Shown: positions 19,612 to 57,481, counted from the stretch's first letter. The stretch is DNA of 64,000 bases from a virus (IMGVR_UViG_3300027747_002427), one strand, 5' to 3'. Notes: a model not told the origin generated them from the sequence alone. Program-made: numbers and translations.

Positions 19612-19648
19612 ACTTTTTTTGAAACTCTTAGGGTAAGTAATATCATCT

Positions 19649-20002: not shown

Positions 20003-20004
20003 AT

Positions 20005-20012: not shown

Positions 20013-20019
20013 TAATATC

Positions 20020-20259: not shown

Positions 20260-20277
20260 TTTAGCTTAAAAAACTAA

Positions 20278-20305
20278 TTGCATTTATTAATCATTTCTTT
20301 ATAAT
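20278..20305 (+). promoter_or_regulatory. sigma70-type promoter for purA
   Basis: TTGCAT-N16-TATAAT, ATG 6 nt later. Confidence 0.65.
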
Positions 20306-20311
20306 AAGGGA

Positions 20312-21310: not shown

Positions 21311-21312
21311 CC

Positions 21313-21627
21313 ATGAGTAATTCCACATCATCAGCCTTCAAAGGCATTCCCACTAAACTTACAAACAATCCAGAGGTTGTTGAAGAAATTCTTCTTACAG
21401 AAGTTCCTGTAATTGATGAGACTTTATTAGAAACACCATCTACTGAAACACCTATAGTTGAAGTACCAATTGCAGAAGGTTCATTATTAGAGAATCCTAT
21501 TATTGATGAAACTTTATTAGAAGAAGGTTCTTTAGAAGAACAACATAAAGATCTTTTGAAGAAAGAGGAAAGTGTTTTGGAAAGAAAGATTGAAGTTTTA
21601 GAAGAACTTAAAACTTTAATTTCTTAA
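21313..21627 (+). CDS. Highly acidic repeat protein
   Basis: Repeated PxIDETLLE / EGSLLE units. Confidence 0.5.
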   Translation: MSNSTSSAFKGIPTKLTNNPEVVEEILLTEVPVIDETLLETPSTETPIVEVPIAEGSLLENPIIDETLLEEGSLEEQHKDLLKKEESVLERKIEVLEELKTLIS

Positions 21628-21635
21628 AAATTTAT

Positions 21636-21706
21636 TTCCTGGTGGTGTAATGGTAGCACAAGAGTTTTTGGCACTCTTTGTCGAGGTTCGAGTCCTTGCC
21701 GGGAAG
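21636..21706 (+). tRNA. tRNA-Gln(UUG)
   Basis: AGAGT-TTTTGGC-ACTCT; TTCCTGG/CCGGGAA; no CCA. Confidence 0.9.
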
Positions 21707-21714
21707 CTTTTTAG

Positions 21715-21743
21715 TTGATATTCCTTTATAAAACATTTAATAT
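21715..21743 (+). promoter_or_regulatory. sigma70-type early promoter
   Basis: TTGATA-N17-TAATAT-ATAAACA-ATG, same layout as 9014. Confidence 0.65.
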
Positions 21744-21750
21744 ATAAACA

Positions 21751-22107
21751 ATGAGCGAAGAAAATACAAAGACAGTAAGACTAATGGAATCCTTTACCAC
21801 ATATGAGTGCCATGGAGACATTAAACTTAATCTTGATATTTTCCCGGAATTGAAAGATAAGACAAATCAAGAAATTCAAACTTGGTTAAATGAAAATTCT
21901 GGTAATCTTTATATTGATTGTTATAGCCAAGAACTTCGCAAAGATCAATATTATATATATTCCCAAGAAGAATTAGATGATATGTTGGTTAATGGAGAAG
22001 ATCCTGAAATAGATGATAGTGTAATAGAACTTTCAGAATATTGGTCAAATACGGAAGTGATTTGGGATAAAATCAAGTGTGAAGAAAAGACTTTGCATGT
22101 ACAATAA
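21751..22107 (+). CDS. Acidic hypothetical protein
   Basis: 118 aa ORF. Confidence 0.5.
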   Translation: MSEENTKTVRLMESFTTYECHGDIKLNLDIFPELKDKTNQEIQTWLNENSGNLYIDCYSQELRKDQYYIYSQEELDDMLVNGEDPEIDDSVIELSEYWSNTEVIWDKIKCEEKTLHVQ

Positions 22108-22114
22108 TTTAAAT

Positions 22115-22199
22115 GGGTAGATCGCATAGCGGCAATTGCCGGAGACTGTAAATCTCCTCTCCTCGGAGTTCGAAGGTTCGAGTCCTTCTCTGCCCACCA
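22115..22199 (+). tRNA. tRNA-Tyr(GUA)
   Basis: GGAGA-CTGTAAA-TCTCC; variable arm; CCA. Confidence 0.92.
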
Positions 22200-22203
22200 T
22201 TTT

Positions 22204-22872
22204 ATGAAAATTAAAACTAAACTTACAAAAATTTGTACAGGTGTTTATCTTTGCGAAATTGATAATGCTTATGATTTGGCAATGACTTTTTGTAGGGTTC
22301 AAGAATTTTATGAATCTTCTTTTGAGCAAATAAGAGGCAAAAATTTTAATATGATGGAATTTCAAAGAATTTATTCTTTGAAAAATGGAGGAACTTTTAC
22401 ATATCCTGAAGACTGGTCTGGTTTTAATATTCCTAGTGGTATTTTAGATAAATTTTATAAAGGTTCTTGGGTTCAGACAGATTGGAATATGTATGATTCA
22501 GTATTAAAAAAAGTGATCAATCAAATAAAAGAAAACAAACCTTATTATTTGATAGGGACACAGAAAAAGGATCAAGATACCATCAATCATGAATTATGTC
22601 ATGCGTTTTATAAATTAGATAAAAAATATAAAAAAAGTGTAACCAAACTTATTAATAGTATTCCAAGAAGACTTTTAGATAAAATGAAAAATGTTCTTCG
22701 TAAAACCGGATATTGCGATAATGTATTAAGAGATGAAATACAAGCATATCTTTCCTGTGACCAAGCCTTTTTAGGCGATGCAATAAGATCCGATTGGGAG
22801 AAAATAGAAAAGTGGGGTATTGTTTTTGAAAAACATTTTAATAAACATATTACCCTAAATATAAAGAAATGA
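22204..22872 (+). CDS. Zincin-like (HExxH) hypothetical protein
   Basis: INHELCHAFY motif; downstream DEIQAY. Confidence 0.55.
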   Translation: MKIKTKLTKICTGVYLCEIDNAYDLAMTFCRVQEFYESSFEQIRGKNFNMMEFQRIYSLKNGGTFTYPEDWSGFNIPSGILDKFYKGSWVQTDWNMYDSVLKKVINQIKENKPYYLIGTQKKDQDTINHELCHAFYKLDKKYKKSVTKLINSIPRRLLDKMKNVLRKTGYCDNVLRDEIQAYLSCDQAFLGDAIRSDWEKIEKWGIVFEKHFNKHITLNIKK

Positions 22873-24008
22873 ACTTTAAAGATTTCTATAACAACGAAGA
22901 AGGACACATGGTTCTTGTTAAAGACGTTGAGATTAGTGAGGCGTTATCATATCACCTGAAACATAAATTAACCTTAAGTGAAAATGCTTTTAGAATATAT
23001 TCAGATCAATACTTTGCTTTAATTCAAGAAGCTAGAGATCTTTATAATCAAGATGCCTTGGCTTTAAATGACGAAGATGTAGAATTAGTTGAATCTTCTT
23101 TAGGTGAAAAAGCAATTTACAACGGAAGAGAAGTTTATTTAGAAGCCCCTCTTTATCTAAGTGAGGATATTATATTAGAAGCAACATTGGAGCCTAATTC
23201 TATTGATACAACAATTTATGTTGATATGGATGGGGTTTTAGCTGATTTAAGAAAAGCAGTTTGTCAATATGTTGGTAAAGATCATGTTGAAGACGAAGAT
23301 TATGACAAATATTTCTTAGATCATAAAGACAATATAAAAGATTGTTTTAGAAATCTTACAAAATTCGATTCAACAGATTATTTAATTAAGCTTGTTTCGG
23401 ATGTTGCAGGGTCTTATAAAATTTGTTCATCGCCTTTAAGAAGTGATAGAGAAAATTCATCCATCGGAAAAAGTGAATGGTTAGAATCCAATTTAGAAAT
23501 TAAACCTTTAGAGAAAATTTTTACAGGCCGCAAAGAGTCCTATGCTACTACAAACGGCAAACCTAATATTTTAATAGATGATAAAGAAAAAAATATTAGA
23601 AGGTGGGAAGATAAAGGCGGAATAGGAATTCTTTATTCGGCAGAACATGATAGTCTAGACACAATTGTTCAAGGTTTAGAAAGAGCTAAAAAAATATTAA
23701 TGGGTGAAAGTACAATTACAGAAGCTATTAAAAATGGTAAAAAAGTAAAACTCGGCCATCCATTTAGAACCCCAGGAGGTCCTAAGAAATTTGCCGTTTA
23801 TGTTAAGACACCCAAAGGTTCTATCAAGAAAGTAACCTTTGGAGATCCTAATATGAAGGTTCGTAATAATAATAAAGCTAGAGCTAAATCATTTAGAGCA
23901 AGACATAAATGTTCTCAAAAGAAAGATAGAACAACGGCTGGTTATTGGAGCTGTAATGTTTCTCGATATCGTAAAGCTTTAGGTTTAAAATCTTCAAGAG
24001 TCTGGTAA
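22869..24008 (+). CDS. Multidomain protein: CTS-like N-domain + HAD 5'(3')-deoxyribonucleotidase-like + DUF6321-like basic C-domain
   Basis: MNFKDFY; IYVDMDGVLAD, ICSSP, K, ILIDD HAD motifs; KKFAVYVK...TFGDPNMK...RAKSFRARHKC...YWSC. Confidence 0.75.
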   Translation: MNFKDFYNNEEGHMVLVKDVEISEALSYHLKHKLTLSENAFRIYSDQYFALIQEARDLYNQDALALNDEDVELVESSLGEKAIYNGREVYLEAPLYLSEDIILEATLEPNSIDTTIYVDMDGVLADLRKAVCQYVGKDHVEDEDYDKYFLDHKDNIKDCFRNLTKFDSTDYLIKLVSDVAGSYKICSSPLRSDRENSSIGKSEWLESNLEIKPLEKIFTGRKESYATTNGKPNILIDDKEKNIRRWEDKGGIGILYSAEHDSLDTIVQGLERAKKILMGESTITEAIKNGKKVKLGHPFRTPGGPKKFAVYVKTPKGSIKKVTFGDPNMKVRNNNKARAKSFRARHKCSQKKDRTTAGYWSCNVSRYRKALGLKSSRVW

Positions 24009-24271
24009 TGAGCCTTCCGTTTCAGCAAGAAAGGATATCTGATAAAGAAGTTATCAGATCATTTTCAGAATTTATAGATGAAGAAGATTTAAAATGGCAT
24101 TTTGATAAAGAAGACAGAATAGTTGAAGCTTTAGAACCTACGGATTGGTTAATTCAATTTGATAACCAATTACCCCAATTAATAGAAGGCAAAATAGAAA
24201 TCCCTGCTGGAATATATCACAGAGTAATAAAAGGAAAAAAAGATTTTAAAATTAAAATTAAAATGTCTTGA
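24008..24271 (+). CDS. Cupin-like small protein
   Basis: WHFDKEDRIVE...IPAGIYHRVIKG pattern. Confidence 0.6.
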   Translation: MSLPFQQERISDKEVIRSFSEFIDEEDLKWHFDKEDRIVEALEPTDWLIQFDNQLPQLIEGKIEIPAGIYHRVIKGKKDFKIKIKMS

Positions 24272-24296
24272 TCTTTCTTATCAGGTGTATTAATAT
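24268..24296 (+). promoter_or_regulatory. sigma70-type promoter for tRNA-Val/Ala
   Basis: TTGATC-N17-TAATAT-AAAC. Confidence 0.6.
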
Positions 24297-24307
24297 AAAC
24301 ATGATAT

Positions 24308-24383
24308 GCACGAGTAGCTCAGTGGTAGTAGCGTTTCGCTTACACCGAAAATGTCGGGGGTTCGAATCCCTCCTCGTGTACCA
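24308..24383 (+). tRNA. tRNA-Val(UAC)
   Basis: TTTCG-CTTACAC-CGAAA; CCA. Confidence 0.92.
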
Positions 24384-24384
24384 T

Positions 24385-24457
<73 letters not shown>

Positions 24458-24467
24458 CTCCACTATT

Positions 24468-42460: not shown

Positions 42461-44743
42461 ATGCCCCCAGAGGTCTTAGAAAAAATATTAGCTAAATTAG
42501 ACCAAGTAGATCCCATATCTAAGGAAGATCTGCTTAATGCCCTTTTGGGTAAAGAAAATTCTTCTTTAGATATAAGCAGAGAAATAAAAAAAGTTATTTC
42601 TAATATAGATGCTTTAGCTGAATTAGAAATAGAAAGAACCTTTCAAAAAGTTAATGGAAAATTGCCAGGTGATTTAGCAAAAATTTTATCCAAATTAGAT
42701 CAATCTTTAGATTCTCAATCTAAAAAAATTATAGAAGATTTAGTTAATAAAGAAACGCCAAAAACAGAATCTACTTTACCAAAAGAAGAAATCAAGCCAA
42801 GAGAAGTAGAACCAATTTTACCAAGAGAAGAAGTTAGACCAACGGAAATTAGACCACAAGAATTTGAAATAACTTTATCTAAACGTTCTGTTAACGATCT
42901 TAAAAAGTTATTTGGAGGAATGTTAAATGATTCTTTTAAAAATTTAGAAAAGGTTACTGTAGATGAAAACAAAAAATTAAAAGACGGTTTCTCTGGTATA
43001 TCCAAATCAATTAGTGACAGAGGTCCTATGTTTGATTTATTTGGCTTAGGTACATTAGGTAGAATGTTAAAACCAATTGGAATGGGTATATTGGCAGCTG
43101 TTACAAGTCTTTCTCTTTTAATGGGAGCCTTTGGGAAAGATTTAACATCTGTAATAGATAGAATATTTGGTACCAATCTTTCCCTAATTACAAGAGTAGT
43201 TGAAAAACTAACACCTGGAATACCTTCTCAGGCTTATGATTTTCTTACAAAATGGTCATCAAGATTTTTTGCTTCTAGAGCATTTGGTGAGACAACAATA
43301 TCTAAAGCCGGTGAAAATTTAAAAAGAGTACCTGCATTGGGAGGTTTATTAAGTAGCACTATAGGACCTTTATGGAGAGGTACTATGAGTGCTCTTACTG
43401 GAAAAAATTATGTAGCTCCTGAAAGTAAAACCGGTATTAAGGCCATGGAAGGAGCTGCAAAATTAGCAGAAGAACAAAAAGTGGCTAATGCTGCTCAAAA
43501 GGCAATTTATGATAAAGAAAAAGCTGCATTAATGAGAGGTCAAGGGTTTAGACAAGGTCTTACAGAAGCTCAAGCTATTGAAAAATTGGCAGCAGAAGGC
43601 ATAAGTGAAACTGCTCCTACCATTGCAAAAGGAGCTGGGAAGGCTAGTGGATGGTTGGCTAAAATATTAACAAAATTTGGTATTGGTGCATCTGAAAGAC
43701 TTTTGACCAAAATACCATTTGGTGTTGGTGCTTTGTTTGGTTTAGGATTTGGTGCTGAAAGAATAATGAGAGGTGATTATGTAAGTGGTATACTACAAAT
43801 TGCATCAGGAATTGCTTCTATTTTTCCTTTTGCCGGAACAGCTATAAGTTTAGCTTTAGACGTTTTAGATATTGGTCTAGCGGTAGCTGCACCGGAATTT
43901 AAAAAGAGTGCCAATAAATTTTTATGGCAAAATGGTCTTAAATATTTTCCATTATTTAACTTTTTCAGGTATTTAGGATATCATATAGATAGTGGTAGAC
44001 CTTGGTTAGCGGTATTTGATTTTTTAAGATTAGTACCTGGAACCGCAAGTATAGCAAATACATTTGAAACCTTTTTGACATCTGATATAGAAAAACAAAC
44101 AGATGCTGGGAAACCTATTAGTTTTTCAAAACTAGGTCAAATGGTACGCAAAAATCTTTGGAAATCTATATCCCCTTATATACCTGAAATGTGGGGGTTA
44201 AAAAAATGGTTTGCCGAAGCAACGGGATTATCTGATGAGACTATTTCAGAAGGAGAACCATCTACTTTAACAAAACCAGAAGGTTCTCCTTACAAACCTT
44301 TTCCAACCCCTTCAAAAAATACATACCAAAAAAGTCCAAAAGATGAAGTATCTTGGAGTGAATTACATAAAGGAGAACATTTTATATCTGAAGGAAGAGG
44401 TAAAGGAAAATGGGTAAAAGACCTTCAATATAGTTTACAAGAAGGACCAAAAGGATTTTCTGCTGACGAAGAATTTAACAAAGTTAAACTCCCTTCTGCT
44501 TTAGAAGATTCCTCTGATATGAAAAATTATATGACAACTCTTAATACAACTTTATTTAATTTAACTAATAGTTTTAAAGATTTTAGTCAAAATTATAAAG
44601 GATCAGAAGAGTCTCCTTCAATAGTAAGTATAAACAGTTCTACCCAGAACAATGGAGGTGGTTTAAATTATTTAATGGGTGGAAGGGATCCTACATTTGA
44701 ATATAGAACTTTGGTTGGTATTGCTTTAAATCGAGGAGATTAA
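42461..44743 (+). CDS. Tape-measure/baseplate hub-like protein
   Basis: 760 aa; G/A-rich hydrophobic helices (GDYVSGILQIASGIASIFPFAGTAISLALD). Confidence 0.55.
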   Translation: MPPEVLEKILAKLDQVDPISKEDLLNALLGKENSSLDISREIKKVISNIDALAELEIERTFQKVNGKLPGDLAKILSKLDQSLDSQSKKIIEDLVNKETPKTESTLPKEEIKPREVEPILPREEVRPTEIRPQEFEITLSKRSVNDLKKLFGGMLNDSFKNLEKVTVDENKKLKDGFSGISKSISDRGPMFDLFGLGTLGRMLKPIGMGILAAVTSLSLLMGAFGKDLTSVIDRIFGTNLSLITRVVEKLTPGIPSQAYDFLTKWSSRFFASRAFGETTISKAGENLKRVPALGGLLSSTIGPLWRGTMSALTGKNYVAPESKTGIKAMEGAAKLAEEQKVANAAQKAIYDKEKAALMRGQGFRQGLTEAQAIEKLAAEGISETAPTIAKGAGKASGWLAKILTKFGIGASERLLTKIPFGVGALFGLGFGAERIMRGDYVSGILQIASGIASIFPFAGTAISLALDVLDIGLAVAAPEFKKSANKFLWQNGLKYFPLFNFFRYLGYHIDSGRPWLAVFDFLRLVPGTASIANTFETFLTSDIEKQTDAGKPISFSKLGQMVRKNLWKSISPYIPEMWGLKKWFAEATGLSDETISEGEPSTLTKPEGSPYKPFPTPSKNTYQKSPKDEVSWSELHKGEHFISEGRGKGKWVKDLQYSLQEGPKGFSADEEFNKVKLPSALEDSSDMKNYMTTLNTTLFNLTNSFKDFSQNYKGSEESPSIVSINSSTQNNGGGLNYLMGGRDPTFEYRTLVGIALNRGD

Positions 44744-46543: not shown

Positions 46544-48427
46544 ATGCCAAGAAAATCAAAAGACGAAGAAGACGAAGAAGATGAGGTAGATCTTAATTCT
46601 ATACCTTTAGAGGAGATAGAAAACGCTGATATATTAGCTGACGGCAAATATTTTCAAGGTAATGAAAATATTTTAAGACAAAATGCTACTTTCAAATGGA
46701 CTGAAGAGATGCAATCGGAGCTTAAGCTCTGTATTAAAAGTATCTTACATTTTGCAGAACATCATTTTTATATATCCACCCTTGATGATGGAAAGAAAAG
46801 AATTGAACTTCATAAATTCCAGAAAAGATTATTAAAAGCTTTCAAAGCTAATAGATTTAATATCGTATTAGCCTCGCGTCAGGTGGGTAAAACCACTTGT
46901 ATTACAATTTATGCTCTTTGGTTAGTTTGTTTTCAATCTGATAAAAGAGTTACTATCATTGCTAACAAAGAATCAACTGCAAAAGAAATTTTTAGCAGAA
47001 TTCGTATGGCCTTTGAACAATTACCAATTTATCTCAAGCCTAGTATGAAGTCTTGGAGAAAAGATGGGTTCTTGTTATCTAACGATTCAGCTATTACCAT
47101 TAGTACAACCTCAGCAGCAGGTCCTCGTGGTAGTACAAGTAATCTTCTTATTATTGATGAGATGGCTCACTGTCCAACAGAACTCATGAAAGAACTTTGG
47201 AAATCTGCTATTCCTATTATATCTTCTTCTAAGAAATCTCAAATTGTTGCTATTAGTACACCCAATGGAACTGATAATAAATTTTATGAACTTTATGAAG
47301 AATCCCAAAAGAAAGGAAGTGAATGGCACTTAGAAAGAGTTGATTGGTGGGATGTTCCTGAAAGAGACGAAGAATGGAAAAGAGGAGCTATAGCGGCTTT
47401 GGGTTCGGAAGAAGACTTTGAACAAGAATATGGCAATGCTTTTATTCTCCCGGGTAAGAGTGTTGTAGATACAACCTATCTAGATGAGTTAAAAGCTCAA
47501 GCTAAAGAACCAGTTCTTATTAATGATAATGGTTTTTATAAAATATTTGAATTACCTAAACCAGGTAATCTTTATATCATAGGTGTCGACGTAGGAGAGG
47601 GTATAGGAAGATCAAATACAGTAGCTCAGATTTTGGATGTTACTAATTTACAAGATATTAGACAGGTAGCTATATATGCTACCAATACTATGAGTCCTTT
47701 TCATTTTGGAACAAAGTTGATGAGTGTTTTAACCGATTGGGGAAGACCTCCTATTCTTATTGAAAATAATAACAATGGTCAACAAGTATTAGATGTTCTA
47801 CATCAAACCCATCAATATGAAAATATTGTATCTTATCAATTTGAAGGTAATAGCAAACATTATGATACCGGAAAAAGACTAGGAGTTCATAATCATACTA
47901 ATACAAGATATAAAGGTATTATTAATTTTAGATATTGGTCTAATGGATTAAAAGTGGTAAAATTAAATGATTTAGACACTATATTAGAACTTTATAATTT
48001 TGTTCGTTTGCCTAATTTTACATTTAGTAAAAGAAGTGATAAAGATTTAGATGATAGAGTATTTGGTTTAATTTGGGGGCTCTTTATTTTAGATCCTTCT
48101 TTGGTTTCTAAATATTTTTTATTATCGGAATTGGATGATCAGGGAAGACCTAGTAGAATACAAGCTCTTGTAGATAATTCAGATCTTATATCAAAAAGTC
48201 CTTTACTCATAGGTGGTGGATATACTTTAGAAAAAAAGAGTGCTCCTGTATTGCCTAGTTATGTGCCGGTTAAAGGGCAAGAAGGCAATGCAGTGCTAGC
48301 TGATGAAGCTAAAAATTTATGGATGTGGCTACATACAAATGGTGGTACCGAAAAAGATACGTTCAAAACTCCTCTTCAAGAGGATAAGTCTTCTATAGAA
48401 GAATATAGACCTATTATATTATTTTAA
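46544..48427 (+). CDS. gp17: Terminase large subunit
   Basis: ASRQVGKTT Walker A; LIIDE Walker B; STPNG; FEQEY; IGVDVGEG; DDRV nuclease. Confidence 0.95.
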   Translation: MPRKSKDEEDEEDEVDLNSIPLEEIENADILADGKYFQGNENILRQNATFKWTEEMQSELKLCIKSILHFAEHHFYISTLDDGKKRIELHKFQKRLLKAFKANRFNIVLASRQVGKTTCITIYALWLVCFQSDKRVTIIANKESTAKEIFSRIRMAFEQLPIYLKPSMKSWRKDGFLLSNDSAITISTTSAAGPRGSTSNLLIIDEMAHCPTELMKELWKSAIPIISSSKKSQIVAISTPNGTDNKFYELYEESQKKGSEWHLERVDWWDVPERDEEWKRGAIAALGSEEDFEQEYGNAFILPGKSVVDTTYLDELKAQAKEPVLINDNGFYKIFELPKPGNLYIIGVDVGEGIGRSNTVAQILDVTNLQDIRQVAIYATNTMSPFHFGTKLMSVLTDWGRPPILIENNNNGQQVLDVLHQTHQYENIVSYQFEGNSKHYDTGKRLGVHNHTNTRYKGIINFRYWSNGLKVVKLNDLDTILELYNFVRLPNFTFSKRSDKDLDDRVFGLIWGLFILDPSLVSKYFLLSELDDQGRPSRIQALVDNSDLISKSPLLIGGGYTLEKKSAPVLPSYVPVKGQEGNAVLADEAKNLWMWLHTNGGTEKDTFKTPLQEDKSSIEEYRPIILF

Positions 48428-49033: not shown

Positions 49034-50701
49034 ATGGCTAACATTACAATTGCATCTGTAAATCCAGAATCTGGTTCTATTCATATTGCCGGTGCTGAAG
49101 CATCAACAACTCCAGGCAATAATAATGATTTAAAATATGTTTACCAGATAAGAGATCAATTTTATCATTTAGAAACTTGGATGTATAATCAATTTGATGA
49201 TTATAAACCCTTTCAAGTATCTTTCTTTTCTATAGAAGCATTAGCTTTAGAAGAAACATTATTTAATTGGCCTACTAATGGTTGGATGGTTTTAAAAAAT
49301 GATTTTGAATTATTTGAAAGAGGTTCTTTACCAGTCGATAATATAGCTGGTATACCAGCACCTTATATTTTTAGAAGTGATGGTCGTAATAGAATTAATA
49401 TTAAAATATATCCGATACCAAATCCAGCTGGTATAGTAGGAGAATCTATTGATAATCAAGAATTGCCTAGAGATTTGTGGGAAATGAATTTTGATTTTGT
49501 TATATATGATATAGAAGATTTACCAACAGATAATAATCAAAATAAATTACGTAAATTGTATTTTCATGATGAAAGGCTACAAATATTAAAAGAAAGAAAT
49601 ATACAATGGTCTACAGCTAAATACGGACCAAATCAAGGACAATTAGGTACTACAGATAAAGCTAGGGCAATGCCTGTAAGTGATGCTATGAAATCTATAA
49701 TACAAACAGCTGGTTCTAGTAAAAGTGATCCTTTATTTTCTGATTTAAATGTGGGTTATAATGAAAGTCTAGGTTCTATAAGTGATCCTAAAATTCCTTT
49801 AGCTAGTTTCGGAGATTGGGATGAAGGACATGCTCCAAATGGAGAACCAGTCAATATACTTTATACTTCCCCAGCAGGGTCAAATGCTTTAGAAGATTTA
49901 AGTTATTTGTATCAAAATGCAGTTAGTTCTGATGGTACTCCATTAATTTTAGATTTTGGTAGAACTACAGATGATAAAAAATTTCATTTAAGACCTCTTT
50001 CATATTTTTTCAAAAATGCCGAAAAAAATCAAATAGAAAAATTAATATTGGTAGATGGAATATCGCCAGATAAAGCTCTCCCTTATATTCCTAGAGCTCC
50101 TAATATGGCTGGAACCGCTATTCAAAATTTTACATCTGGCATAGCTTCTCTAATTAAAAGTTATAATTTTGCACCTATGGTCGCAACAGATGACGCAAAA
50201 ATAACTAATAAACCTCTTCATAATTTTAATTTTGCTAATTCTGAATTTAATATATATTACGAAGATAACACAGCTGAAAAAATTTCTAAGAATATGGAGG
50301 ATATGGCAAAACAAGGTTTATATGGTCTTAATAATGGAGGTCAATTGTTAATGAATATAAACAAAACCAAGCAAACTGGTTTAATGAATACACCTTATTT
50401 TGAATCTCAGACATTTTTCCCAAAAAATAAACCTGCTATGTTGATGATGAAACAAGCATTATTTTTGAATCAAGCTTTATATTTTCAGGTTCCTGGATTA
50501 ACTTTTAGAACTCCAGGTAAATTTATATTTGTTGACAGAACTTCTTCTAGTGATAACAATCCTTTTGATGATAGATTTTTAGGTCAATGGATGATAATTA
50601 AAGTTGTTCATTTATTTACAAAAGACAATTATGTCAATGATGTAGTTGCTACAAAAATAGATACTTTCAAAAAAATGTGGCCAATTTTAGATAAAAAATA
50701 A
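49034..50701 (+). CDS. Baseplate hub protein (gp27/VgrG-N-like)
   Basis: C-terminal VPGLTFRTPGKFI...GQWMIIKVVHLF; precedes spike genes. Confidence 0.6.
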   Translation: MANITIASVNPESGSIHIAGAEASTTPGNNNDLKYVYQIRDQFYHLETWMYNQFDDYKPFQVSFFSIEALALEETLFNWPTNGWMVLKNDFELFERGSLPVDNIAGIPAPYIFRSDGRNRINIKIYPIPNPAGIVGESIDNQELPRDLWEMNFDFVIYDIEDLPTDNNQNKLRKLYFHDERLQILKERNIQWSTAKYGPNQGQLGTTDKARAMPVSDAMKSIIQTAGSSKSDPLFSDLNVGYNESLGSISDPKIPLASFGDWDEGHAPNGEPVNILYTSPAGSNALEDLSYLYQNAVSSDGTPLILDFGRTTDDKKFHLRPLSYFFKNAEKNQIEKLILVDGISPDKALPYIPRAPNMAGTAIQNFTSGIASLIKSYNFAPMVATDDAKITNKPLHNFNFANSEFNIYYEDNTAEKISKNMEDMAKQGLYGLNNGGQLLMNINKTKQTGLMNTPYFESQTFFPKNKPAMLMMKQALFLNQALYFQVPGLTFRTPGKFIFVDRTSSSDNNPFDDRFLGQWMIIKVVHLFTKDNYVNDVVATKIDTFKKMWPILDKK

Positions 50702-50702: not shown

Positions 50703-51014
50703 ATGAATAGAGATGAACTCAAAGCTAAATTACAAGAAGCTCACATTCAACGCTTGGCTTCTTCTAATAAAACCCAATATCCTTCTGCTATGCAAATGGC
50801 TAGGAATTTAGGTAGTAGTGTTATTAATAATGCAATGAGTGTTGCTGCTGGAAATAGTCTAAGAGTAGATAATAGTGTTGCTGAAACTAGATTAAATGTT
50901 TGTAAAGGTTGTGAATTTTTTAATCAACTACAAGAAAGATGTGGTAAGTGTGGATGTAATATGGCTGTTAAGACTTACTTGAGAGCGGAGAAATGTCCGG
51001 TAGGAAAGTGGTAA
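50703..51014 (+). CDS. Cys-rich small protein (DUF6171-like)
   Basis: RLNVCKGC...RCGKCGC.M.VK...CPVGKW. Confidence 0.6.
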   Translation: MNRDELKAKLQEAHIQRLASSNKTQYPSAMQMARNLGSSVINNAMSVAAGNSLRVDNSVAETRLNVCKGCEFFNQLQERCGKCGCNMAVKTYLRAEKCPVGKW

Positions 51015-51597
51015 CATAAAAGTCTGCTAAATTTAAAGCTATTTTCTTAATTTCTTTTTTATAAACCTTTAAGTCTTTATATTCTAGTGTAAGAATTATT
51101 TGTTCTGCTAAAGATCTAATAATTTTATTATTAGTAAATTCAAAATTATTGGCTGGTTCTAATCCTTCTCTTTCTATATAAAAAAGAGTTCCTTTAACTT
51201 CATCCTTTAACCACCAAATTTCGTCTTTGGGGTATTCTATGTATCTTATATCTGTTATTATAGATATATTATTCTTTGCAAAGGTTTTATCTGCGCTTAA
51301 TTTCTCTATAAAATAGCGTCCTTTCGTAGTGTTCCTCATTAGTCTGCCATATTCAACAAACATAGGCCTGAGCAAAGTTTTTTCTTTATCACTATTAGTA
51401 TAAACTGATAAATTTGTTTTATCTGATATTAATTTATCTAAATCTTTTCTTATACAATCACCTGCTATAGAAAATCTCTTAGCTTCTAAATTATATTTTT
51501 CTTTAAATGCTTCTATTAAAGCAACACACAAAGAATCTTTGCCTGCTCTTGCGTACCCCGACAAACCAATCGGAGGGTAAAATAAGCTATTTGCCAT
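50968..51597 (-). CDS. Deoxynucleoside monophosphate kinase (T4 gp1-like)
   Basis: IGLSGYARAGKDS P-loop; IITDIRY. Confidence 0.75.
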   Translation of the reverse strand: MANSLFYPPIGLSGYARAGKDSLCVALIEAFKEKYNLEAKRFSIAGDCIRKDLDKLISDKTNLSVYTNSDKEKTLLRPMFVEYGRLMRNTTKGRYFIEKLSADKTFAKNNISIITDIRYIEYPKDEIWWLKDEVKGTLFYIEREGLEPANNFEFTNNKIIRSLAEQIILTLEYKDLKVYKKEIKKIALNLADFYVTTFLPDISPLSSKS

Positions 51598-51621: not shown

Positions 51622-53064
51622 ATGGCCACTAGTCAATCTACTATTGTAAACAAAGACTCTTTAAAACAATTGGAAGCCTCTTCTGGAATAAAAGCTTCTG
51701 GTACTGGACTTACTTTAGATACCTTTAAAGCTAATGGAGACGGTAATCAGTATGCTGCTAGATTAGATATGCTAGTGAATGGTAAAAAATCTATAGGTCA
51801 TGTTTGGGCTATAGATCAAGGTGATCCATATCCTATAACTGGAGGTACAAGAGGAACATATGTTAATTTTGTAAAATGGTGTAAAGAAAATCATTTATTA
51901 GAAGCATTACAGAAACAAACTCCAGCAGGAACTGCAGGAGAATTAGTTACTGGCGGAATGTTAGGAATTGATACTTTATTGACTTCACAAATGTTCCAAA
52001 ATCCTATTACAGGACCAGCACAAAATGCTCCTTGTTTGGGTGCAGATCTTTTAAATAGTATACACCCTCACATGGTAGAAGGTATAGAAAATTTTTGTAA
52101 TATTATTCGCACAAGATCATATCTATCTTTACCACCAGGGGCTTTTGGAGGATTGAGTTCTTTTCTTTATAAAGTACAGGGAGCTATAAGTGGTTTTATT
52201 CAAGCATTATATAATGTTTATCACGGGGTTTTATTAATGATGCAAAGATTTGCTAATATGATTAACGGACTTTTGCAATCTTTAAATCAATTTATCTATG
52301 ATTTTATTAGTTACTTTATACCATTAGATTTAATTTGTGCTATATTAGGTGCTTTCCAAAGTTTGTTAGATGACGTAGCATTTTTTGCACAACTTTTCGG
52401 AGGAGGTGATGGAATTTTTAATGCAATCAATTCAATTCAAACCGTTATAAATTTTGCTGCTCAAGGTTTAAATTATGCATACAATCCAATATCTTTAGCT
52501 GGTTTGATTCCGGGTGTTAATGATGTATTTAAAGCTTTAAATCAATTATCATCAGATCCAGAAGCTTTCATGGGTCAATTAATTTCTCATTTTGGATTTT
52601 CTGCTGGGGCTGGAAACAAAGCTGTACAAATTGCAAATGCTATTCTTTTACATTATGGGTTAGAAAGTCAATTAGGTCCATTAGGTTCTGTATTGTTGTC
52701 TCAAGGTGTTGCTGGAAATAGCAGTCAATGGTATAGATCTGGTGATACTGGAACCGGTAATTTTGGTAATCTTGCTTATGGTAATGTTATACCAAACCCA
52801 GGTTATATAGATCCAGATAATCCTTTTAGTTTCTTGGACGTAAATTCTAATCCATATTTTAATAAAGCTAAAGCAAACATAGAAGATTTTAAAACTAATG
52901 CGCGCGCTATACCAGCTGCAGCTGGTGCAGCGGCAGCTGAAGTGGGAGCTATACCGGGTAATATTGCAACTTCTGTTGGTAATTTCTTTAATCCTAATGC
53001 AGCTCCTCAACAAGTTGCACCAGTGACTCCAACACCAGTGGTTGCAAATCCAAATAATCCTTAA
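51622..53064 (+). CDS. Unknown probable baseplate/virion protein
   Basis: 480 aa; amphipathic/hydrophobic central helices; sits between hub and spike genes. Confidence 0.45.
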   Translation: MATSQSTIVNKDSLKQLEASSGIKASGTGLTLDTFKANGDGNQYAARLDMLVNGKKSIGHVWAIDQGDPYPITGGTRGTYVNFVKWCKENHLLEALQKQTPAGTAGELVTGGMLGIDTLLTSQMFQNPITGPAQNAPCLGADLLNSIHPHMVEGIENFCNIIRTRSYLSLPPGAFGGLSSFLYKVQGAISGFIQALYNVYHGVLLMMQRFANMINGLLQSLNQFIYDFISYFIPLDLICAILGAFQSLLDDVAFFAQLFGGGDGIFNAINSIQTVINFAAQGLNYAYNPISLAGLIPGVNDVFKALNQLSSDPEAFMGQLISHFGFSAGAGNKAVQIANAILLHYGLESQLGPLGSVLLSQGVAGNSSQWYRSGDTGTGNFGNLAYGNVIPNPGYIDPDNPFSFLDVNSNPYFNKAKANIEDFKTNARAIPAAAGAAAAEVGAIPGNIATSVGNFFNPNAAPQQVAPVTPTPVVANPNNP

Positions 53065-53076: not shown

Positions 53077-54177
53077 ATGGAGCCAATCAAGGGTATACAT
53101 TTAGGATTAGTAGTTAGTAGTTCTCCGGATCCAGAAGGAAGAAATAGAGTTCAAGTATGGGTACCACATTTATCCAATACACTTTATGGACCTTTAAATC
53201 AAAAATTAAAAGATGTAAAATTTAAAGGCCCAGAAGATTTAAATACTATAGACAAAGACATTTTAATTACTTTACAAACCACATTGCCTTGGGCAGAATA
53301 TGGAGCACCTTTATTTGGAGGTTCTAGCGGAGCTTTTAACACTGCTACCGGACAAACAGCAGTCAATAGTGGTTCTACTTTTCAAGGCAGTGGTAATGCT
53401 GCTCCTTTTTTGCCTACAGCTTCTGCAAATATGAAGACAGATGGTACTAAACCAGCTACGCCTTCTGCTGGAGTTATTACAGCATCAAGAACCCAACCCA
53501 CTCTCACCCAAAGAGGTATTAGTTTTGCCTCTGGAATTATAAATTTGGCTTTACCAGATGGTACAACGAAACAATATCCTTTTAATAATGGCGGTGGTGG
53601 AGCGGGTGCAATACCTGCTGGGAATTACACAATTTCAAATCCTCAAATAAGAAATACACCAGGGATGGTTGTAGATGGAGTAGGTTATTCTTTTAATTTA
53701 AGTGATATTTATGATCCAGCAGCCGGTCGTAATAGAACTGAACTTCGTATACATCCAGATGGAGGGGCTACAGGAACCGCTGGATGTATTGGTATTGTAG
53801 GTGATGGTAATACTCAATCTCAATTTTATAAAGATTTAAATTCCGTTTTAGCAGCTAATGGTGGTGTTTATAATTTAAACATAGTAAATGATCTTCCGGG
53901 AGATGGAACTGGTAAAATTAATGATCCGGATCCTACAAAACCAAGTGTTTCTACTGGTAGTACATCTGGAGCAAAAGGTGTAGTATATCCAGATAGATCT
54001 GCTGCTGTAGGTTGTGTTCCAAGTAATGTAGGTACACCGGGATCTCCTGTAGGAACTTTTTCTACTCCTAATGGTGGAACAAAAGTTTGGGTGTTCTTCA
54101 TGGGCGGCGATGCTCAGAGACCAGTTTATTTTGCTCAGTCCCCTAATCCAGGAGATGTAAATGCTTTACGCGGTTAA
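53077..54177 (+). CDS. gp5-type OB-fold protein with inserted Tlde1/L,D-transpeptidase-like domain
   Basis: GLVV...DPEGRNRVQVW...LPWAE and PNGGTKVWVFFMGGD..PVYF OB halves; insert IPAGNY...RIHPDGGATGTAGCIG. Confidence 0.8.
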   Translation: MEPIKGIHLGLVVSSSPDPEGRNRVQVWVPHLSNTLYGPLNQKLKDVKFKGPEDLNTIDKDILITLQTTLPWAEYGAPLFGGSSGAFNTATGQTAVNSGSTFQGSGNAAPFLPTASANMKTDGTKPATPSAGVITASRTQPTLTQRGISFASGIINLALPDGTTKQYPFNNGGGGAGAIPAGNYTISNPQIRNTPGMVVDGVGYSFNLSDIYDPAAGRNRTELRIHPDGGATGTAGCIGIVGDGNTQSQFYKDLNSVLAANGGVYNLNIVNDLPGDGTGKINDPDPTKPSVSTGSTSGAKGVVYPDRSAAVGCVPSNVGTPGSPVGTFSTPNGGTKVWVFFMGGDAQRPVYFAQSPNPGDVNALRG

Positions 54178-54179
54178 AA

Positions 54180-55430
54180 ATGGAACCTGATTACGACATA
54201 CATTTAGGTTTAGTAGTTAGTAGTTCTCCAGATCCTGAAGGAAGAAATAGAGTTCAAGTTTGGATTCCTTATTTGTCTAACACGCTTTATGGACCTTTAA
54301 ATCAAAAATTAAAAGACGTGCATTTTAAAGGACCAGAAGATTTAAATAATATAGATAAAGATATTTTAACTATATTACAAACCACATTACCTTGGGCAGA
54401 ATGCGCCGCTCCTTTGTTCGGTGGTTCTAGTGGAGCTTTTAACACTGCTACCGGGCAAACAGCAGTCAATAGTGGTTCAACAGTTCAAGGTAGTGGTAAT
54501 GCTGTTCCGTCTTTACCTACTGCAACACCAAATATGAATGTCACCGGGATCAAACCAGATAATATTAATGGTTCTTACGGAAATGCTAGTAGTCTTGGTC
54601 TTCCTTCTGGTTGGAATAAAGAATCTGCTTATGATAAACAAGGTAGACTTGCTACAAAAGGTAATACATTACAATTTATATCAGCTCAAGAGTTGCACAA
54701 TATAAATTTAAATGCAGCACAAAATGGAGGTCTAGCAGGTTTAGCTGCTCCGAAAGATTCTAGTTATTTTACACCAGGTACAACAACAACTGCTGCTCAA
54801 TGGGCAAATTATATGGATGCTATAGCTTTGCATGAAAACGTCGGTCTTGGAGGAGGTAAGGGAGGAGGTACATACTCTTCAGTAAATGGTTATATACCAA
54901 TTAATGTAACATATAATGAAGGTTATAAAAACAATGGACCGATACATTGGTCTGAAGGTATATATCAAATGACTGTAGGGGAAAATGGATTGAATAGTGA
55001 TAACATTTATGATCCAAATGCTCAGGCAGCAGCTTTTACACAAAGAGCACGAGATTTTGCAGTTATAGCAGGTGCTAAAAAAGGAGATTGGTCAATAGGT
55101 GATAGTGGTATTGCTGCTTATGGATGGAACAGGGCTGCAAATGATGTAGCAGCAGCAAATGGTAATAATTCTAATGATTTATTAAATAATGTTTCTTTGC
55201 CTCAAGGTGCACAAAGTAATGGAACCCGACCAATAACTTATACGGATAAATCAGCAGCAGTAGGTTGTCAACCCAGCAATGTAGGTGCACCTGGTGCTCC
55301 TGTAGGAACCTTTTCTATCCCAAATGGTGGAACAAAAGTTTGGGTATTCTTTATGGGTGGAGATATACAAAAGCCGGTTTATTTTGCTCAAGCCCCAAAT
55401 CCCGGGGATATAAATGCCCTACGAGGTTAA
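54180..55430 (+). CDS. gp5-type OB-fold paralog with inserted lysozyme/SLT-like domain
   Basis: Same OB halves; insert AIALHEN...SEGIYQM...IYDPNAQAAA. Confidence 0.72.
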   Translation: MEPDYDIHLGLVVSSSPDPEGRNRVQVWIPYLSNTLYGPLNQKLKDVHFKGPEDLNNIDKDILTILQTTLPWAECAAPLFGGSSGAFNTATGQTAVNSGSTVQGSGNAVPSLPTATPNMNVTGIKPDNINGSYGNASSLGLPSGWNKESAYDKQGRLATKGNTLQFISAQELHNINLNAAQNGGLAGLAAPKDSSYFTPGTTTTAAQWANYMDAIALHENVGLGGGKGGGTYSSVNGYIPINVTYNEGYKNNGPIHWSEGIYQMTVGENGLNSDNIYDPNAQAAAFTQRARDFAVIAGAKKGDWSIGDSGIAAYGWNRAANDVAAANGNNSNDLLNNVSLPQGAQSNGTRPITYTDKSAAVGCQPSNVGAPGAPVGTFSIPNGGTKVWVFFMGGDIQKPVYFAQAPNPGDINALRG

Positions 55431-55444
55431 TTATAATTAAATAT

Positions 55445-57481
55445 ATGCCAAAACCAATAGATTATACAAAAAATAAAGAATCTCAAGTACACCATACATC
55501 TGGAAGATATAGTGGTATACAATTTGTAGATAATAAACAGGTAGATCCTAATGGTTCTCAAAGTCCTAAAGATAAATCATTTTCTTATTGGGGTAATTCT
55601 TGGAACACTTTTACTAAAATATTTACAGGCAATATTTTTTCTAATGCTCCCGGAAATATTAGTTTAAATGCCGGGGAAGAAGTGCATATTACTGCTCATA
55701 ATAAACAAGAAACTACTTCTGGTGGTAGTGCAGTTTATAATAAAGGCGAAACAGTTCATAATCATGGAGAGATGACTGATGAAGATAAAGCCAAGATGAA
55801 AGAATATCAAGGTTATCTAGATCAGATAACTCAAAAAGCACAAGATGCAATAAAAAATACTGCTGCAGAAAAAGTAACTTGTCCTAATTGTGCTCAAATG
55901 CATCTAATAGATGATAAAAGCGATCAATGGGTTATTATTTTAGATTATATAAGAAGAATAGTAGATAACTTTCCTTATCTTACTTTTCCTTTTGCGGTTT
56001 TAAGAACTTTAATTATGAAAGTTTATGTTCCTCTTTTAGGACAAAAAACTAATTTAGGCCTTAATGGAGGGGAAGGGTGTGGACCAGGATGTAAAAGTGG
56101 AGAAAAGGATGGGATGTCTTTAAAAATGCAGGCCGGTGAAAAAGCTGTAAAAGATGAAATGGAAAAATTATCTGATAAGATGAACAAATTAACAATAGCT
56201 ATGAAAAATTCTTCAGCTACTGCTAAAGTTCATAAAGATAGTGAAATACATATATATGGTGATCCTACAGCTGGTCCTCCTAAAACAAAACCTTATGTGA
56301 CCCCAGGACCACATCATTCTTTGCCTATGAATTTGAGAGTATCAGATTCTTGGAGAAATAAATTAAGAGTATCAACAGAAGGTAATTGTAAAGTAGTAGT
56401 TTATCAACCACCATTACATTCTCCATTTGGTAATCTAATGATGCAAGTTCAAAATAATTTAAAAATTACTACAGGTAATGCTGGCATGGATCTTATGTCT
56501 ACCGGGGAAATAGCTGTAAAGGGTGGATCTGTGCACGTCAATGCATCAGAAGGAGAACTTTCTATTACATCTAAAAACCTTACAACTATAGGTGGTGGTA
56601 ATGTTTTAATAGCTGCAGATAATAAATCTGGTGATACAGGAGTATGTATAGATGCTAAACACACATATGTGAGAGGTGCTTTTAATGTTAATGGTGATGC
56701 AGCTGTGCTCGGTGCTCTTACATTAGACGGGCCTCTATCAGTTCCTTATATTAATTGTCCTACTATGGCAGCTCCTACTACTTTAAACGGATCTTCTAAA
56801 TACGCAAATCATCATGCAAATTGGGAAGAATTTGGGGCAGCTTTAAATGCTCTCAATTTTGAAACAGATTTAATAACAAAATTTTTATTCCAACCTAGTT
56901 TACTATTAACTGGATCTGGATTAACTGAAATTATTATGGAAGCTTATAATTTAATTATGATGGCTATATTTATAGAAATACTTCCTACTGGAATATTCAT
57001 AGGAGCCGGAGTAGGGCTTGGTGCTTGTGCTGTTGCTGGATTAGTTTGGAATTTTACTCATAACCATACCCAGGCTCCTCAAGATCATACTCATGAAGTT
57101 GCCGTTCCTAAGGGAGGATCTTGGAAAACATTAGCTGGTGCCGGTCAACAAAGAGCTGCTGGTAATCCAGCCCCAACAGTTGCTCCTACAAGTGGTACGT
57201 GGCCTTCTCCGGGACCTAGAGCACTGGGTGGTGGTTGTGGTGGTGGTGGATTGTTTAAAAAGGCTCGCAATCAAAATTATGGTATTGATAGTGAAGACGC
57301 TTTCAATGGTGGTAACTATGTCAATACAACTGTTGTGAGAAATCCAGACGGGTCTATATACCCTCCACCAGATTTAACCTATCGTGTTGTTAATGACACG
57401 GGACCAGCTCCAAAGATTGATCCGGTTACTGGTAAGGTTATTATTCCAGATACTACACCTGTAAATGTAGCTTGTGATTAA
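55445..57481 (+). CDS. Central spike beta-helix protein (gp5C-like) with insertions
   Basis: 8-residue beta-helix-like repeats; CPNC...GCGPGC insert; hydrophobic stretch; HNH/HTH; start moved to MPKPIDY. Confidence 0.65.
   Translation: MPKPIDYTKNKESQVHHTSGRYSGIQFVDNKQVDPNGSQSPKDKSFSYWGNSWNTFTKIFTGNIFSNAPGNISLNAGEEVHITAHNKQETTSGGSAVYNKGETVHNHGEMTDEDKAKMKEYQGYLDQITQKAQDAIKNTAAEKVTCPNCAQMHLIDDKSDQWVIILDYIRRIVDNFPYLTFPFAVLRTLIMKVYVPLLGQKTNLGLNGGEGCGPGCKSGEKDGMSLKMQAGEKAVKDEMEKLSDKMNKLTIAMKNSSATAKVHKDSEIHIYGDPTAGPPKTKPYVTPGPHHSLPMNLRVSDSWRNKLRVSTEGNCKVVVYQPPLHSPFGNLMMQVQNNLKITTGNAGMDLMSTGEIAVKGGSVHVNASEGELSITSKNLTTIGGGNVLIAADNKSGDTGVCIDAKHTYVRGAFNVNGDAAVLGALTLDGPLSVPYINCPTMAAPTTLNGSSKYANHHANWEEFGAALNALNFETDLITKFLFQPSLLLTGSGLTEIIMEAYNLIMMAIFIEILPTGIFIGAGVGLGACAVAGLVWNFTHNHTQAPQDHTHEVAVPKGGSWKTLAGAGQQRAAGNPAPTVAPTSGTWPSPGPRALGGGCGGGGLFKKARNQNYGIDSEDAFNGGNYVNTTVVRNPDGSIYPPPDLTYRVVNDTGPAPKIDPVTGKVIIPDTTPVNVACD

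Follow-up and report, generated by a model that had tools for sequence, protein, structure and literature searches.

Tandem OB-fold spike adaptors with different predicted cell-wall enzymes nested at the same site in an uncultured freshwater myovirus

Tail-tip enzymes decide whether the tube of a contractile phage passes a given cell wall. In evolved VgrG proteins of type VI secretion systems (T6SS), as in polymorphic toxins, variable enzymatic domains are exchanged by recombination, and the effector domains of VgrG are C-terminal extensions accompanied by immunity genes. The only well-studied spike enzyme is, to our knowledge, the lysozyme of phage T4 gp5. In the cell-puncturing gp27-gp5 complex, gp5 comprises an OB adaptor, a lysozyme held by linkers and a trimeric beta-helical needle, and it digests the peptidoglycan locally after puncture of the outer membrane (PMC3004832). 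Here we describe two adjacent genes (positions 53077-55430) in a viral DNA stretch of 64,000 nucleotides (IMGVR_UViG_3300027747_002427, referred to below as the window), which encode closely similar OB-type adaptors with unrelated inserts at the same site. Our reading, which we consider likely, is that the equivalent of gp5 has been split in this lineage, that the adaptor part is present as a tandem pair with a different wall enzyme nested in each copy, and that the enzyme cassettes are swapped between phages by way of the conserved OB halves.

Tandem adaptors, insertion site and separate needle

The first gene (53077-54177, + strand), delimited by open reading frame (ORF) and translation, encodes a protein of 366 residues (P0001), an OB-adaptor paralogue with a YkuD/Tlde1-like peptidase cassette. 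The second (54180-55430, + strand), delimited by its ORF, encodes a protein of 416 residues (P0002), an OB-adaptor paralogue with a lysozyme/lytic-transglycosylase-like cassette, and only 2 nt separate the two. The proteins are identical at 103 of the 119 N-terminal residues (16 differences) and at 53 of the last 63 (10 differences), exactly as had been counted in a first-pass annotation of this DNA. BLASTP aligns them with 84% identity over residues 1-126 (E 6e-71), with a second block of high identity over about the last 65 residues, and finds no credible match between their middles. The flanks are 84% (N) and 80% (C) identical at the DNA level. Differences concentrate at third codon positions (39 of 56 in the N flank and 26 of 39 in the C flank), which indicates that both copies are under purifying selection. 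The insert coordinates of the first-pass annotation, 53434-53985 and 54537-55238, agree with codons 120-303 and 120-353, respectively. Its 32-nt run shared by both genes (53182-53213 and 54285-54316) is indeed identical to the letter. As evidence the run does not stand, since runs of at least 32 nt arose in 14% of 20,000 permutations in which the mismatches of the 84%-identical flank were shuffled within codon positions; the run therefore carries no information (P ~0.14), and it was rejected as a sign of recent conversion.

The shared blocks had been taken to be the two halves of the gp5/VgrG OB fold, and profile searches are in keeping with this. Both proteins exceed the cut-off (23.8 bits) of the Pfam family Phage_base_V (PF04717), which is the OB domain of P2 gpV, Mu gp45 and VgrG, with 25.9 bits for P0001 and 29.2 bits for P0002; the match runs through the C-terminal block only (profile positions 41-70). 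Homologous enzyme-free relatives (39-43% identical), which align with the N block, match the same family in two stretches, namely positions 1-32/36 and the C part (E 2e-11). In gene 1 the N flank (codons 1-119; 53077-53433, +) covers the predicted first OB strands and, after a conserved helical excursion, the LPWAE strand, and it runs into the beginning of a low-complexity linker; the C flank (53986-54177, +) covers the last OB strands (GTFSTPNGGTKVWVFFMGGD..PVYF) and the stop codon. The corresponding C flank of gene 2, likewise with the last OB strands and the stop codon, lies at 55239-55430 (+). The OB family found here is characterized by a conserved helical excursion of about 35 residues, and its domain contains either a long loop or an enzyme.

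When viral contigs were scanned with an alignment of the family, 68 loci were obtained, which were then searched with hidden Markov models of the N and C blocks. Many relatives consist of one ORF of 700-1000 residues, with the N block at about 1-100, the C block at about 180-220 and a long C-terminal region. Some are longer (1130-1250 residues), with 250-460 residues between the blocks and the same long tail, and the branch of the window is made up of stand-alone proteins of 340-450 residues that end with the C block. In an alignment, P0001 and P0002 are colinear with the enzyme-free relatives except for an expansion by 170-230 residues of a loop of about 60 residues, located between '...LPWAE..APLFGG.SG..N' and 'G.F..P..G..VW.FF.GG...PVYFA'. 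The sequence of gp5 from the T4 record can be aligned in the first strands and in the LPW strand; it has about 13 residues at that loop, and its OB domain is complete before the lysozyme starts. By alignment and profile evidence, each enzyme is nested in a loop of the OB domain, between the LPWAE strand and the G-T-F-S-x-P strand.

The counterpart of the C-terminal part of gp5 is a separate spike/needle gene (55445-57481, +; 678 residues), which is found directly downstream of the OB gene(s) in all close relatives. Its product was recognised by homology to a fused OB-insert-spike ORF of 1241 residues in the distant relative L014, where it aligns with residues 708-1180 (26% identity over about 500 residues, E 6e-42); in addition, it has a weak match to DUF2345. 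Since the needle protein is homologous to the C-terminal part of the fused ORF, we conclude that in the lineage of the window a gp5-like gene has been split in two, one gene encoding the adaptor with its enzyme and the other the needle, and this gene fission may have made the duplication of the adaptor possible.

Some further features of the needle gene and its fused homologues were observed. Aligned with L014, the needle protein shows Cys motifs that are conserved (CP.C, GCGPGC/P.CK) and, near residues 500-530, a hydrophobic stretch rich in Gly/Ala, and it is homologous to the C-terminal two-fifths of fused ORFs of 1100-1250 residues in distant relatives. Fused OB-insert-needle ORFs of about 1200-1250 residues, with 400-460 residues between the OB halves, are present in L014 (5983-9723), L015, L017 and L023 (all +); Pfam recognised nothing in the insert of L014. 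Upstream of its ATG the needle gene has a further 180 nt of open frame (55265-55444), which lies in the -1 frame relative to gene 2 and overlaps the final 55 codons of that gene. No canonical slippery heptamer was seen in 55321-55445, and a fusion of gene 2 and the needle by frameshifting is unsupported.

The two nested domains

Insert 1 contains a YkuD/Tlde1-like catalytic core (residues 167-269; 53575-53883, +) with His226 (53752-53754) and Cys237 (53785-53787), both present in the motif RIHPDGGATGTAGC to which the first-pass annotation had drawn attention. Many bacterial proteins, mostly from Myxococcota, have a C-terminal domain that is 50-58% identical to this core, and these proteins also bear PG_binding_1 and PG_binding_3 domains. 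In an alignment of 25 domains of this type LRIHPDGG..GT.GCIGI is invariant, and so is the spacing His-x7-Thr-x-Gly-Cys, which in the window reads His226-x7-Thr234-Ala-Gly-Cys237. This fits the L,D-transpeptidase motif described for Tlde1a of Salmonella, an L,D-carboxypeptidase/transpeptidase (PMC9638812). Pfam matches among the 25 domains are to Tlde1_dom (22 of 25), DUF5675 (12 of 25) and YkuD (6 of 25), all below the gathering scores; the window's insert 1 matches Tlde1_dom (PF10908) with 22.2 bits (E 2e-4) when the whole protein is searched, and with 25.4 bits (E 2e-5) for the domain alone. An ESM Atlas model of residues 150-273 gave template modelling (TM) scores of 0.64-0.81 to clusters with YkuD, Tlde1_dom, DUF5675 or the L,D-carboxypeptidase Csd6, with predicted models on both sides of the comparison. 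From motif, profile matches and modelled fold we conclude that insert 1 is a predicted Cys-His peptidase of the YkuD/Tlde1 superfamily, as had been suggested from the motif. Because the score stays below the Tlde1_dom gathering threshold, it is regarded here as a relative within the superfamily and not as a demonstrated member of Tlde1.

Two other approaches to this protein were discarded. A search of the PDB with the insert 1 profile returned only designed beta-trefoils, by way of a chance LRI.PDG motif, and a single-sequence AlphaFold2 prediction of P0001 was unusable, with a mean predicted local distance difference test (pLDDT) score of 36.

Among about 70 relatives with the OB scaffold, the insert 1 cassette was seen in the window only. 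On another viral contig, a 697-residue ORF with a more remotely related OB scaffold (L074, 1909-3999, +) has an N block at residues 11-94, an insert 1-type domain at 369-474 (63% identical) and a C block at 509-549. The domain also occurs inside other phage proteins, ranging from 129 to 2037 residues. A further stretch of about 270 unassigned residues is present in the same loop of the L074 protein, which may thus hold a two-domain cassette.

Insert 2 contains a predicted lysozyme-superfamily core (about residues 160-336; 54657-55187, +), in which an invariant Glu219 (54834-54836) stands at the end of a helix formed by residues 205-221. An exhaustive search of 1.84 billion representatives with insert 2 alone identified about six credible homologues, all of them in OB scaffolds; the homologue P0020 matches Pfam SLT with an E-value of 0.009. 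A word-indexed search with the alignment of insert 2 returned nothing, in part owing to its length filter. Glu219 is invariant across eight aligned homologues, as part of ALHEN in the window, where it had been noted before, and of HES, LES or NES elsewhere. Further motifs shared by the eight are SEG(I/L)(Y/F)(Q/S) and N.Y(D/N)P.AQ.AA, and in the window Glu219 is followed by a Gly-rich loop.

An AlphaFold2 model of P0002, based on an alignment of full-length insert 2 homologues and flank-only fragments of other family members, reached pLDDT values of about 80-95 over most of residues 160-300. With VIA-align the best match of the insert 2 model was the Bdellovibrio lysozyme DslA (Bd0314), with a Z-score of 8.6 over 143 residues (root-mean-square deviation 4.1), which is only moderately above the stated background of the tool, in which models without a true match often reach a best Z of 7-8. 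Other matches were MltF (7.3), phiKZ gp144, phi6 lysin and c-type lysozyme (6.8), MltE (6.7) and Slt70 (5.9). Nearly all of the top 30 are lysozymes or lytic transglycosylases, and the sixteen further matches with Z of at least 5 are all lysozyme-type wall or glycan hydrolases or alpha-lactalbumin. An Atlas model of insert 2 showed TM scores of 0.40-0.44 to SLT clusters, and a profile alignment placed HES/SEGLFS over SES/SNGLLQ of an SLT-like insert (E 1e-3); hhalign detected no relation between the insert 2 family and the inserts of P0008 and P0006. The uniform match list and the invariant Glu and, more weakly, the Atlas similarity to SLT clusters and the SLT-like profile alignment together give weight to the assignment of insert 2 as, probably, a glycosidase of the lysozyme superfamily, in keeping with the lysozyme/SLT-like layout that had been read from its sequence.

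Cassette exchange among related phages

Six syntenic close relatives of the window were recovered, namely L001, L069, L070, L071 and L072/L073, in addition to two contigs. Two adaptor genes are present in four genomes (the window, L001, L069 and L071) and one copy in two lineages, the single-copy close relatives being L070, L072/L073, a 15.9-kb contig and a 39-kb contig. In a tree based on the flanks only, the adaptor genes of the close relatives form one clade (support 97/97). Within it, the genes at the first position in the window, L071 and L069 make up one group (95/95) and those at the second position another (92/75). Since the genes group by position, the duplication predates these phages.

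Comparison with positional orthologues shows sharp breakpoints, as judged at the 30-nt resolution of a sliding window. The first 300 nt of gene 1 are 97.7% identical in DNA to L069 and 96.3% to L071, against a background identity to these two genomes of 86-90% upstream (85.6% over 7.2 kb) and 74-79% in the needle gene. The sliding identity, about 97% at first, is down to about 50% between nt 300, approximately, and nt 900-960 of the gene; the C flank is 86-95% identical in DNA to orthologues. Alignments by blastn with L071, L069 and L003 end at 53384 and resume at 53964-53968, so that the exchanged segment of gene 1, consisting of the cassette plus linkers, extends from 53385 to 53963 (+). In gene 2, alignments with L071 and L003 end at 54481 and resume at 55239, the exchanged segment being 54482-55238 (+), and the C flank is 89-94% identical to that of gene 2 orthologues. 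The first-pass annotation had placed the start of the inserts at the site where the two paralogues part; as a border of exchange this site has to be moved, as the exchanged segments begin about 17 codons earlier, at ~53385 and ~54482.

Between these borders the content differs among relatives. The gene 1 insert of L069/L071 has weak CHAP/NlpC-P60 matches (E 0.008 and 0.022), and a mate in its cluster has a precomputed CHAP match. The gene 2 orthologues of L069 and L071 each contain another insert between flanks of 88-94% identical DNA, and that of L001 (P0009) carries the insert 2 of the window, with 82% protein identity over the full length; three gene 2 orthologues thus have three different inserts. 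The same pattern was seen in public reads: in lake metagenome runs other than the likely source (X4 and X7), contigs matching the gene 1 flank diverge into other sequence at 53381, and two different sequences join the gene 1 C flank at 53964/53968.

Single-linkage clustering divides the inserts of 70 family proteins into about 20 clusters. Those recognised by Pfam are Glucosaminidase, T4-type Phage_lysozyme, Amidase_2 and CHAP, with weak matches also to SLT, Phage_lysozyme2 and a Hedgehog/LAS-type peptidase. Different inserts can be found on nearly the same flanks, as in P0032 and P0033, which are 94-95% identical in their flanks and of which one carries a glucosaminidase, and the flank tree also shows the same insert family on distant flanks. 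On this tree of 44 rows the classes are scattered, with 26 changes of insert class where 15 classes require at least 14; the five label shuffles listed gave 30-31. The junctions cluster right after G-x-K-P and right before S-G-x-(K/R)-x-V-x-Y-x-D. Thus, the expectation that flanks stay constant while inserts vary is clearly borne out on the related loci, and a fixed pair of inserts common to all relatives, which had been named beforehand as the opposite outcome, was not found among them. Cassette exchange between phages is well supported by these sequence comparisons.

The commonest unclassified inserts form cluster 2, with 11 members including P0007 and P0011, whose inserts have no Pfam match. 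By eye, their pattern GPGAAASN.YP.GT.LLN..TGEK..V.DR may resemble that of RlpA/3D-type double-psi beta-barrel transglycosylases.

Codons ~100-108, in the linker, are alike between both copies in three of the four two-gene genomes and differ between genomes: QGSGNA occurs in both copies of the window (53377-53400 and 54480-54503), LQTNNN in both of L071 and FQSNGNA in both of L001. This likeness within a genome and difference between genomes suggests short local conversion between the paralogues. The GC content at third codon positions (GC3) of the inserts, 0.11-0.13, equals that of the surrounding phage genes measured, suggesting that the cassettes are long-standing residents of an AT-rich pool of phage genes, not recent arrivals. 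A recent capture of insert 1 from high-GC bacteria was rejected, as its GC3 of 0.11 is that of the rest of the phage.

Proposed mechanism, alternatives and known systems

We propose that the gp5 equivalent consists here of an OB-fold adaptor gene, duplicated in tandem, and a separate beta-helical needle gene, and that each adaptor would loop out a complete peptidoglycan-cleaving domain on two long low-complexity linkers. The location in the virion, the activities and specificities of the enzymes and the order of infection events we infer as follows. With T4 gp5 as a guide (PMC3004832), the hub trimer would be the docking site of the OB domain. Once the sheath has contracted, the needle would puncture the outer membrane, and the adaptor-borne enzymes would then open the sacculus locally and let the tube pass, as the T4 gp5 lysozyme does. 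The L,D-peptidase of copy 1 would act on peptide stems or 3-3 cross-links, and copy 2 would be a glycan cutter of the SLT/goose-lysozyme type. The conserved OB halves would double as homology arms, at which recombination would replace whole cassettes between phages, and recombination may also homogenise locally the linkers of both copies within one genome. As recombination in the OB halves replaces cassettes, the lineage would sample many wall-cutting chemistries on one scaffold.

With respect to the sharing of the spike by the two paralogues, we hypothesise a division of labour in which one cuts the glycan and the other the peptide part of the wall. The position 1 cassette is Cys-peptidase-like in all four two-gene genomes, an assignment that depends in part on weak matches: it is YkuD-like in the window, CHAP-like in L069 and L071, and in L001 an insert with Cys...His and a very weak NlpC/P60 match. 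At position 2 it is lysozyme-like in the window and L001, has an 'ARES' motif with weak SLT leads in L069, and is unclassified in L071. We tentatively extend this to the possibility that position 1 always holds a peptide-cutting cysteine peptidase or amidase and position 2 a glycan cutter, that selection has kept this arrangement through the swaps, and that both paralogues are built into the same spike, either in a mixed trimer or in stacked rings. If true, the pair would form a matched two-enzyme tool in which each half can be replaced independently via the OB homology arms, and a natural plug-in scaffold for the display of enzymes at the phage tail tip.

A doubtful but conceivable alternative is that each virion spike contains one paralogue only, as homotrimers of copy 1 or copy 2 that would give mixed progeny with alternative tips, or that one copy is spare and serves mainly as a donor for recombination. 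The three-fold symmetry of the spike and the three OB positions in fused relatives would be in line with this, as would the close relatives that manage with a single copy and the homogenised linkers, which show that the copies exchange sequence. However, four genomes retain the two copies, with positional orthology, the copies are under purifying selection, and the occupation of position 1 by Cys-peptidase-like domains and of position 2 by glycosidases where these can be classed looks like complementation and not redundancy, with the same reliance on some weak matches. A prediction of the complex of P0001 and P0002 (score 0.02, with uncertain folds) speaks neither for nor against binding. Another unlikely alternative, somewhat further from our expectation, concerns the role of insert 1, which could remodel the peptidoglycan like the T6SS toxin Tlde1 and not cut a hole, by L,D-carboxypeptidase action, exchange of D-amino acids or release of a lipoprotein anchor, possibly in order to weaken the whole sacculus, alter the envelope after entry or exclude later phages. 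Its closest named families are indeed L,D-carboxypeptidases/transpeptidases and not endopeptidases (PMC9638812), and trimming of terminal D-Ala alone would not open the mesh. Nevertheless, relatives fill the same slot with classical lytic domains (lysozymes, glucosaminidase, amidase, CHAP), the bacterial homologues of insert 1 are fused to peptidoglycan-binding domains, and the domain recurs in other large phage proteins and in the second OB scaffold of L074.

It is highly improbable that no exchange has taken place, i.e. that the flanks are held by structural constraint and the middles have diverged in place. The OB halves must fit the hub and the needle and are hence constrained, and many inserts belong to no recognisable family. 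Divergence in place is at odds, however, with the unrelated folds of the inserts (all-beta YkuD, helical lysozyme, papain-like CHAP, Amidase_2 and Glucosaminidase), with flank DNA that is 96-98% identical, synonymous sites included, and borders sharply on about 50%, and with the distribution of inserts over distant and near-identical flanks described above. That the tandem duplication results from an assembly or binning artefact joining alleles of two strains is hardly credible at all, and it had been judged unlikely from the start. It is true that the flanks are repeated sequence and that graphs built from short reads break at the 32-mer common to both. On the other hand, four independent assemblies, made in different projects, have the same two-gene layout with spacers of 2-5 nt, the paralogues differ by 15% and have separate orthologues, and in a public run, which may be that of the source sample, one contig of 1131 nt bridges 53184-54314, from gene 1 into gene 2, with the 32-mer as a contig of its own at about double depth.

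Several points weigh against the preferred reading of a split gp5 equivalent with nested and exchangeable enzymes. For the scaffold, the N flank of P0002 matches positions 3-25 of Phage_base_V with an E-value of 0.14, which is barely a match, the N flank of P0001 alone does not match it, and in the alignment-based model of P0002 the OB flanks have pLDDT values below 50, so that the model does not confirm the nested topology. Insert 1 misses the Tlde1_dom gathering score (25.4 versus 30.1 bits). Insert 2 has no match in Pfam, including SLT (PF01464), and no sequence match in the PDB, its putative catalytic motif is E-N versus E-S in the homologues, and Foldseek found no match for it in PDB and BFVD at E <=0.001, the best E-value being 0.11; the modest margin of its VIA-align score belongs here as well. 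For the exchange, the flank identity could partly reflect constraint and not recent events. The count of insert-class changes on the flank tree is approximate in view of the single-linkage clusters and of 11 weak forks in the tree. Finally, the isolate phage collection contains no cultured relative of the OB family, and none of the public runs that contain the stretch is an RNA run.

The two OB genes are encoded beside putative hub, tape-measure and needle genes in a tail-tip module, with the order terminase, tail-tube-like protein, hub, DUF6171, deoxynucleoside monophosphate (dNMP) kinase, tape measure, two OB genes and the 678-residue needle protein; this synteny, with one or two OB genes, is conserved among relatives. 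The T4-type large terminase lies at 46544-48427. The putative baseplate hub (49034-50701, +; 555 residues) matches PHROG 350, 'tail protein' (E 1e-5), and the putative tape-measure-like protein (51622-53064, +; 480 residues) matches PHROG 305, 'tail length tape measure' (E 6e-6). An odd arrangement is the interruption of the module, at 50703-51597 between the hub and tape-measure genes, by genes for a small Cys-rich DUF6171 protein and an opposite-strand dNMP kinase, which is kept in all close relatives. Just upstream of the terminase region, a protein of 760 residues (42461-44743, +) has PHROG 'peptidase' and 'endolysin' matches at residues 385-487, and is possibly one more structural lytic enzyme. 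Interspersed with small ORFs, eleven tRNA genes are located at 18433-24458 (Thr, Glu, two Ser, Cys, Pro, Asn, Gln, Tyr, Val and Ala).

The window is AT-rich (about 33% GC), and no phage of the isolate collection has a terminase that reaches 35% identity to its own. Searches of the phage genome collection with P0001, P0002 or an enzyme-free relative gave no DNA or protein match except one of 37 residues, to a small OB protein of two Alishewanella phages; P0001 and P0002 matched no PHROG family, and PDB sequence searches with both gave no match, nor did those with the inserts of four relatives give a meaningful one. The public runs containing the stretch are freshwater metagenomes. The host genome of the locus is that of an uncultured freshwater myovirus with a T4-type terminase, and the OB family as a whole is uncultured.

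Already known are a lysozyme carried by the spike (T4 gp5), the exchange of lytic domains as modules among phage lysins, and variable effector domains of VgrG. In the literature searched we found no description of an enzyme nested inside an OB barrel, of barrel halves as recombination arms for about 20 enzyme classes, or of tandem adaptors with different enzymes, and a peptidase of the YkuD/Tlde1 fold, as presumed here, was not found described as a virion enzyme. The list of solved structures contains no counterpart; the enzymes of phage A-1(L) sit on the hub instead. If located in the virion as we suppose, insert 1 would extend virion-borne lytic activities to the YkuD/Tlde1 L,D-peptidase fold. 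The rare lysozyme-like family of insert 2 and several unclassified inserts are candidate new lytic enzymes, and the collection as a whole is a natural data set on which wall chemistries phages need against which hosts. The tolerant insertion site, with junctions at G-x-K-P upstream and S-G-x-K/R-x-V-x-Y downstream, could possibly be used for display of enzymes on phage or tailocin spikes.

Insert 1 shares with Tlde1/YkuD enzymes (Tlde1a of Salmonella, Csd6, LdtMt2) the Cys-His motif His-x(n)-(Ser/Thr)-x-Gly-Cys and the predicted fold, but it is a compact core of about 105 residues that scores below the Pfam cut-offs, is without an evident capping subdomain and is embedded in a phage spike protein. 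Insert 2 resembles family 1 lytic transglycosylases and goose-type/DslA-type lysozymes in its predicted fold and, putatively, in the invariant Glu that ends a helix and is followed by G-x-x-Q/S; it has no Pfam SLT match, and the copy of the window has E-N where its homologues have E-S, and a Gly-rich loop after the Glu. By sequence, the scaffold falls into one family with the OB domain of P2 gpV, Mu gp45 and VgrG, both proteins passing the Pfam cut-off, whereas only the last 30 profile positions match in one piece. With evolved VgrG and polymorphic toxins the analogy would be one of logic, namely a conserved spike scaffold with variable enzymatic domains, including peptidoglycan hydrolases; here, the variable domain is internal to the OB fold, an immunity gene is not expected, and the system is a virion.

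The closest comparison is with T4 gp5, with which the locus has in common an OB adaptor, a wall enzyme on two long linkers, a needle and a hub/baseplate gene neighbourhood, the role being presumed to be the same. In T4 gp5 the OB barrel is complete before the lysozyme, and all three parts are made as one polypeptide that is later cleaved. In contrast, the enzyme is nested here in an OB loop, the OB domain closes the polypeptide, and a separate gene encodes the needle; the gp5 order of OB domain, enzyme and beta-helix in one polypeptide is thus not that of the window, and fused versions exist in distant relatives such as L014. Moreover, there are two paralogues with different enzymes, one of them a predicted peptidase. 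The locus would therefore represent a solution different from that of T4, with a whole enzyme placed in the loop of an OB adaptor and about twenty enzyme classes carried on one scaffold.

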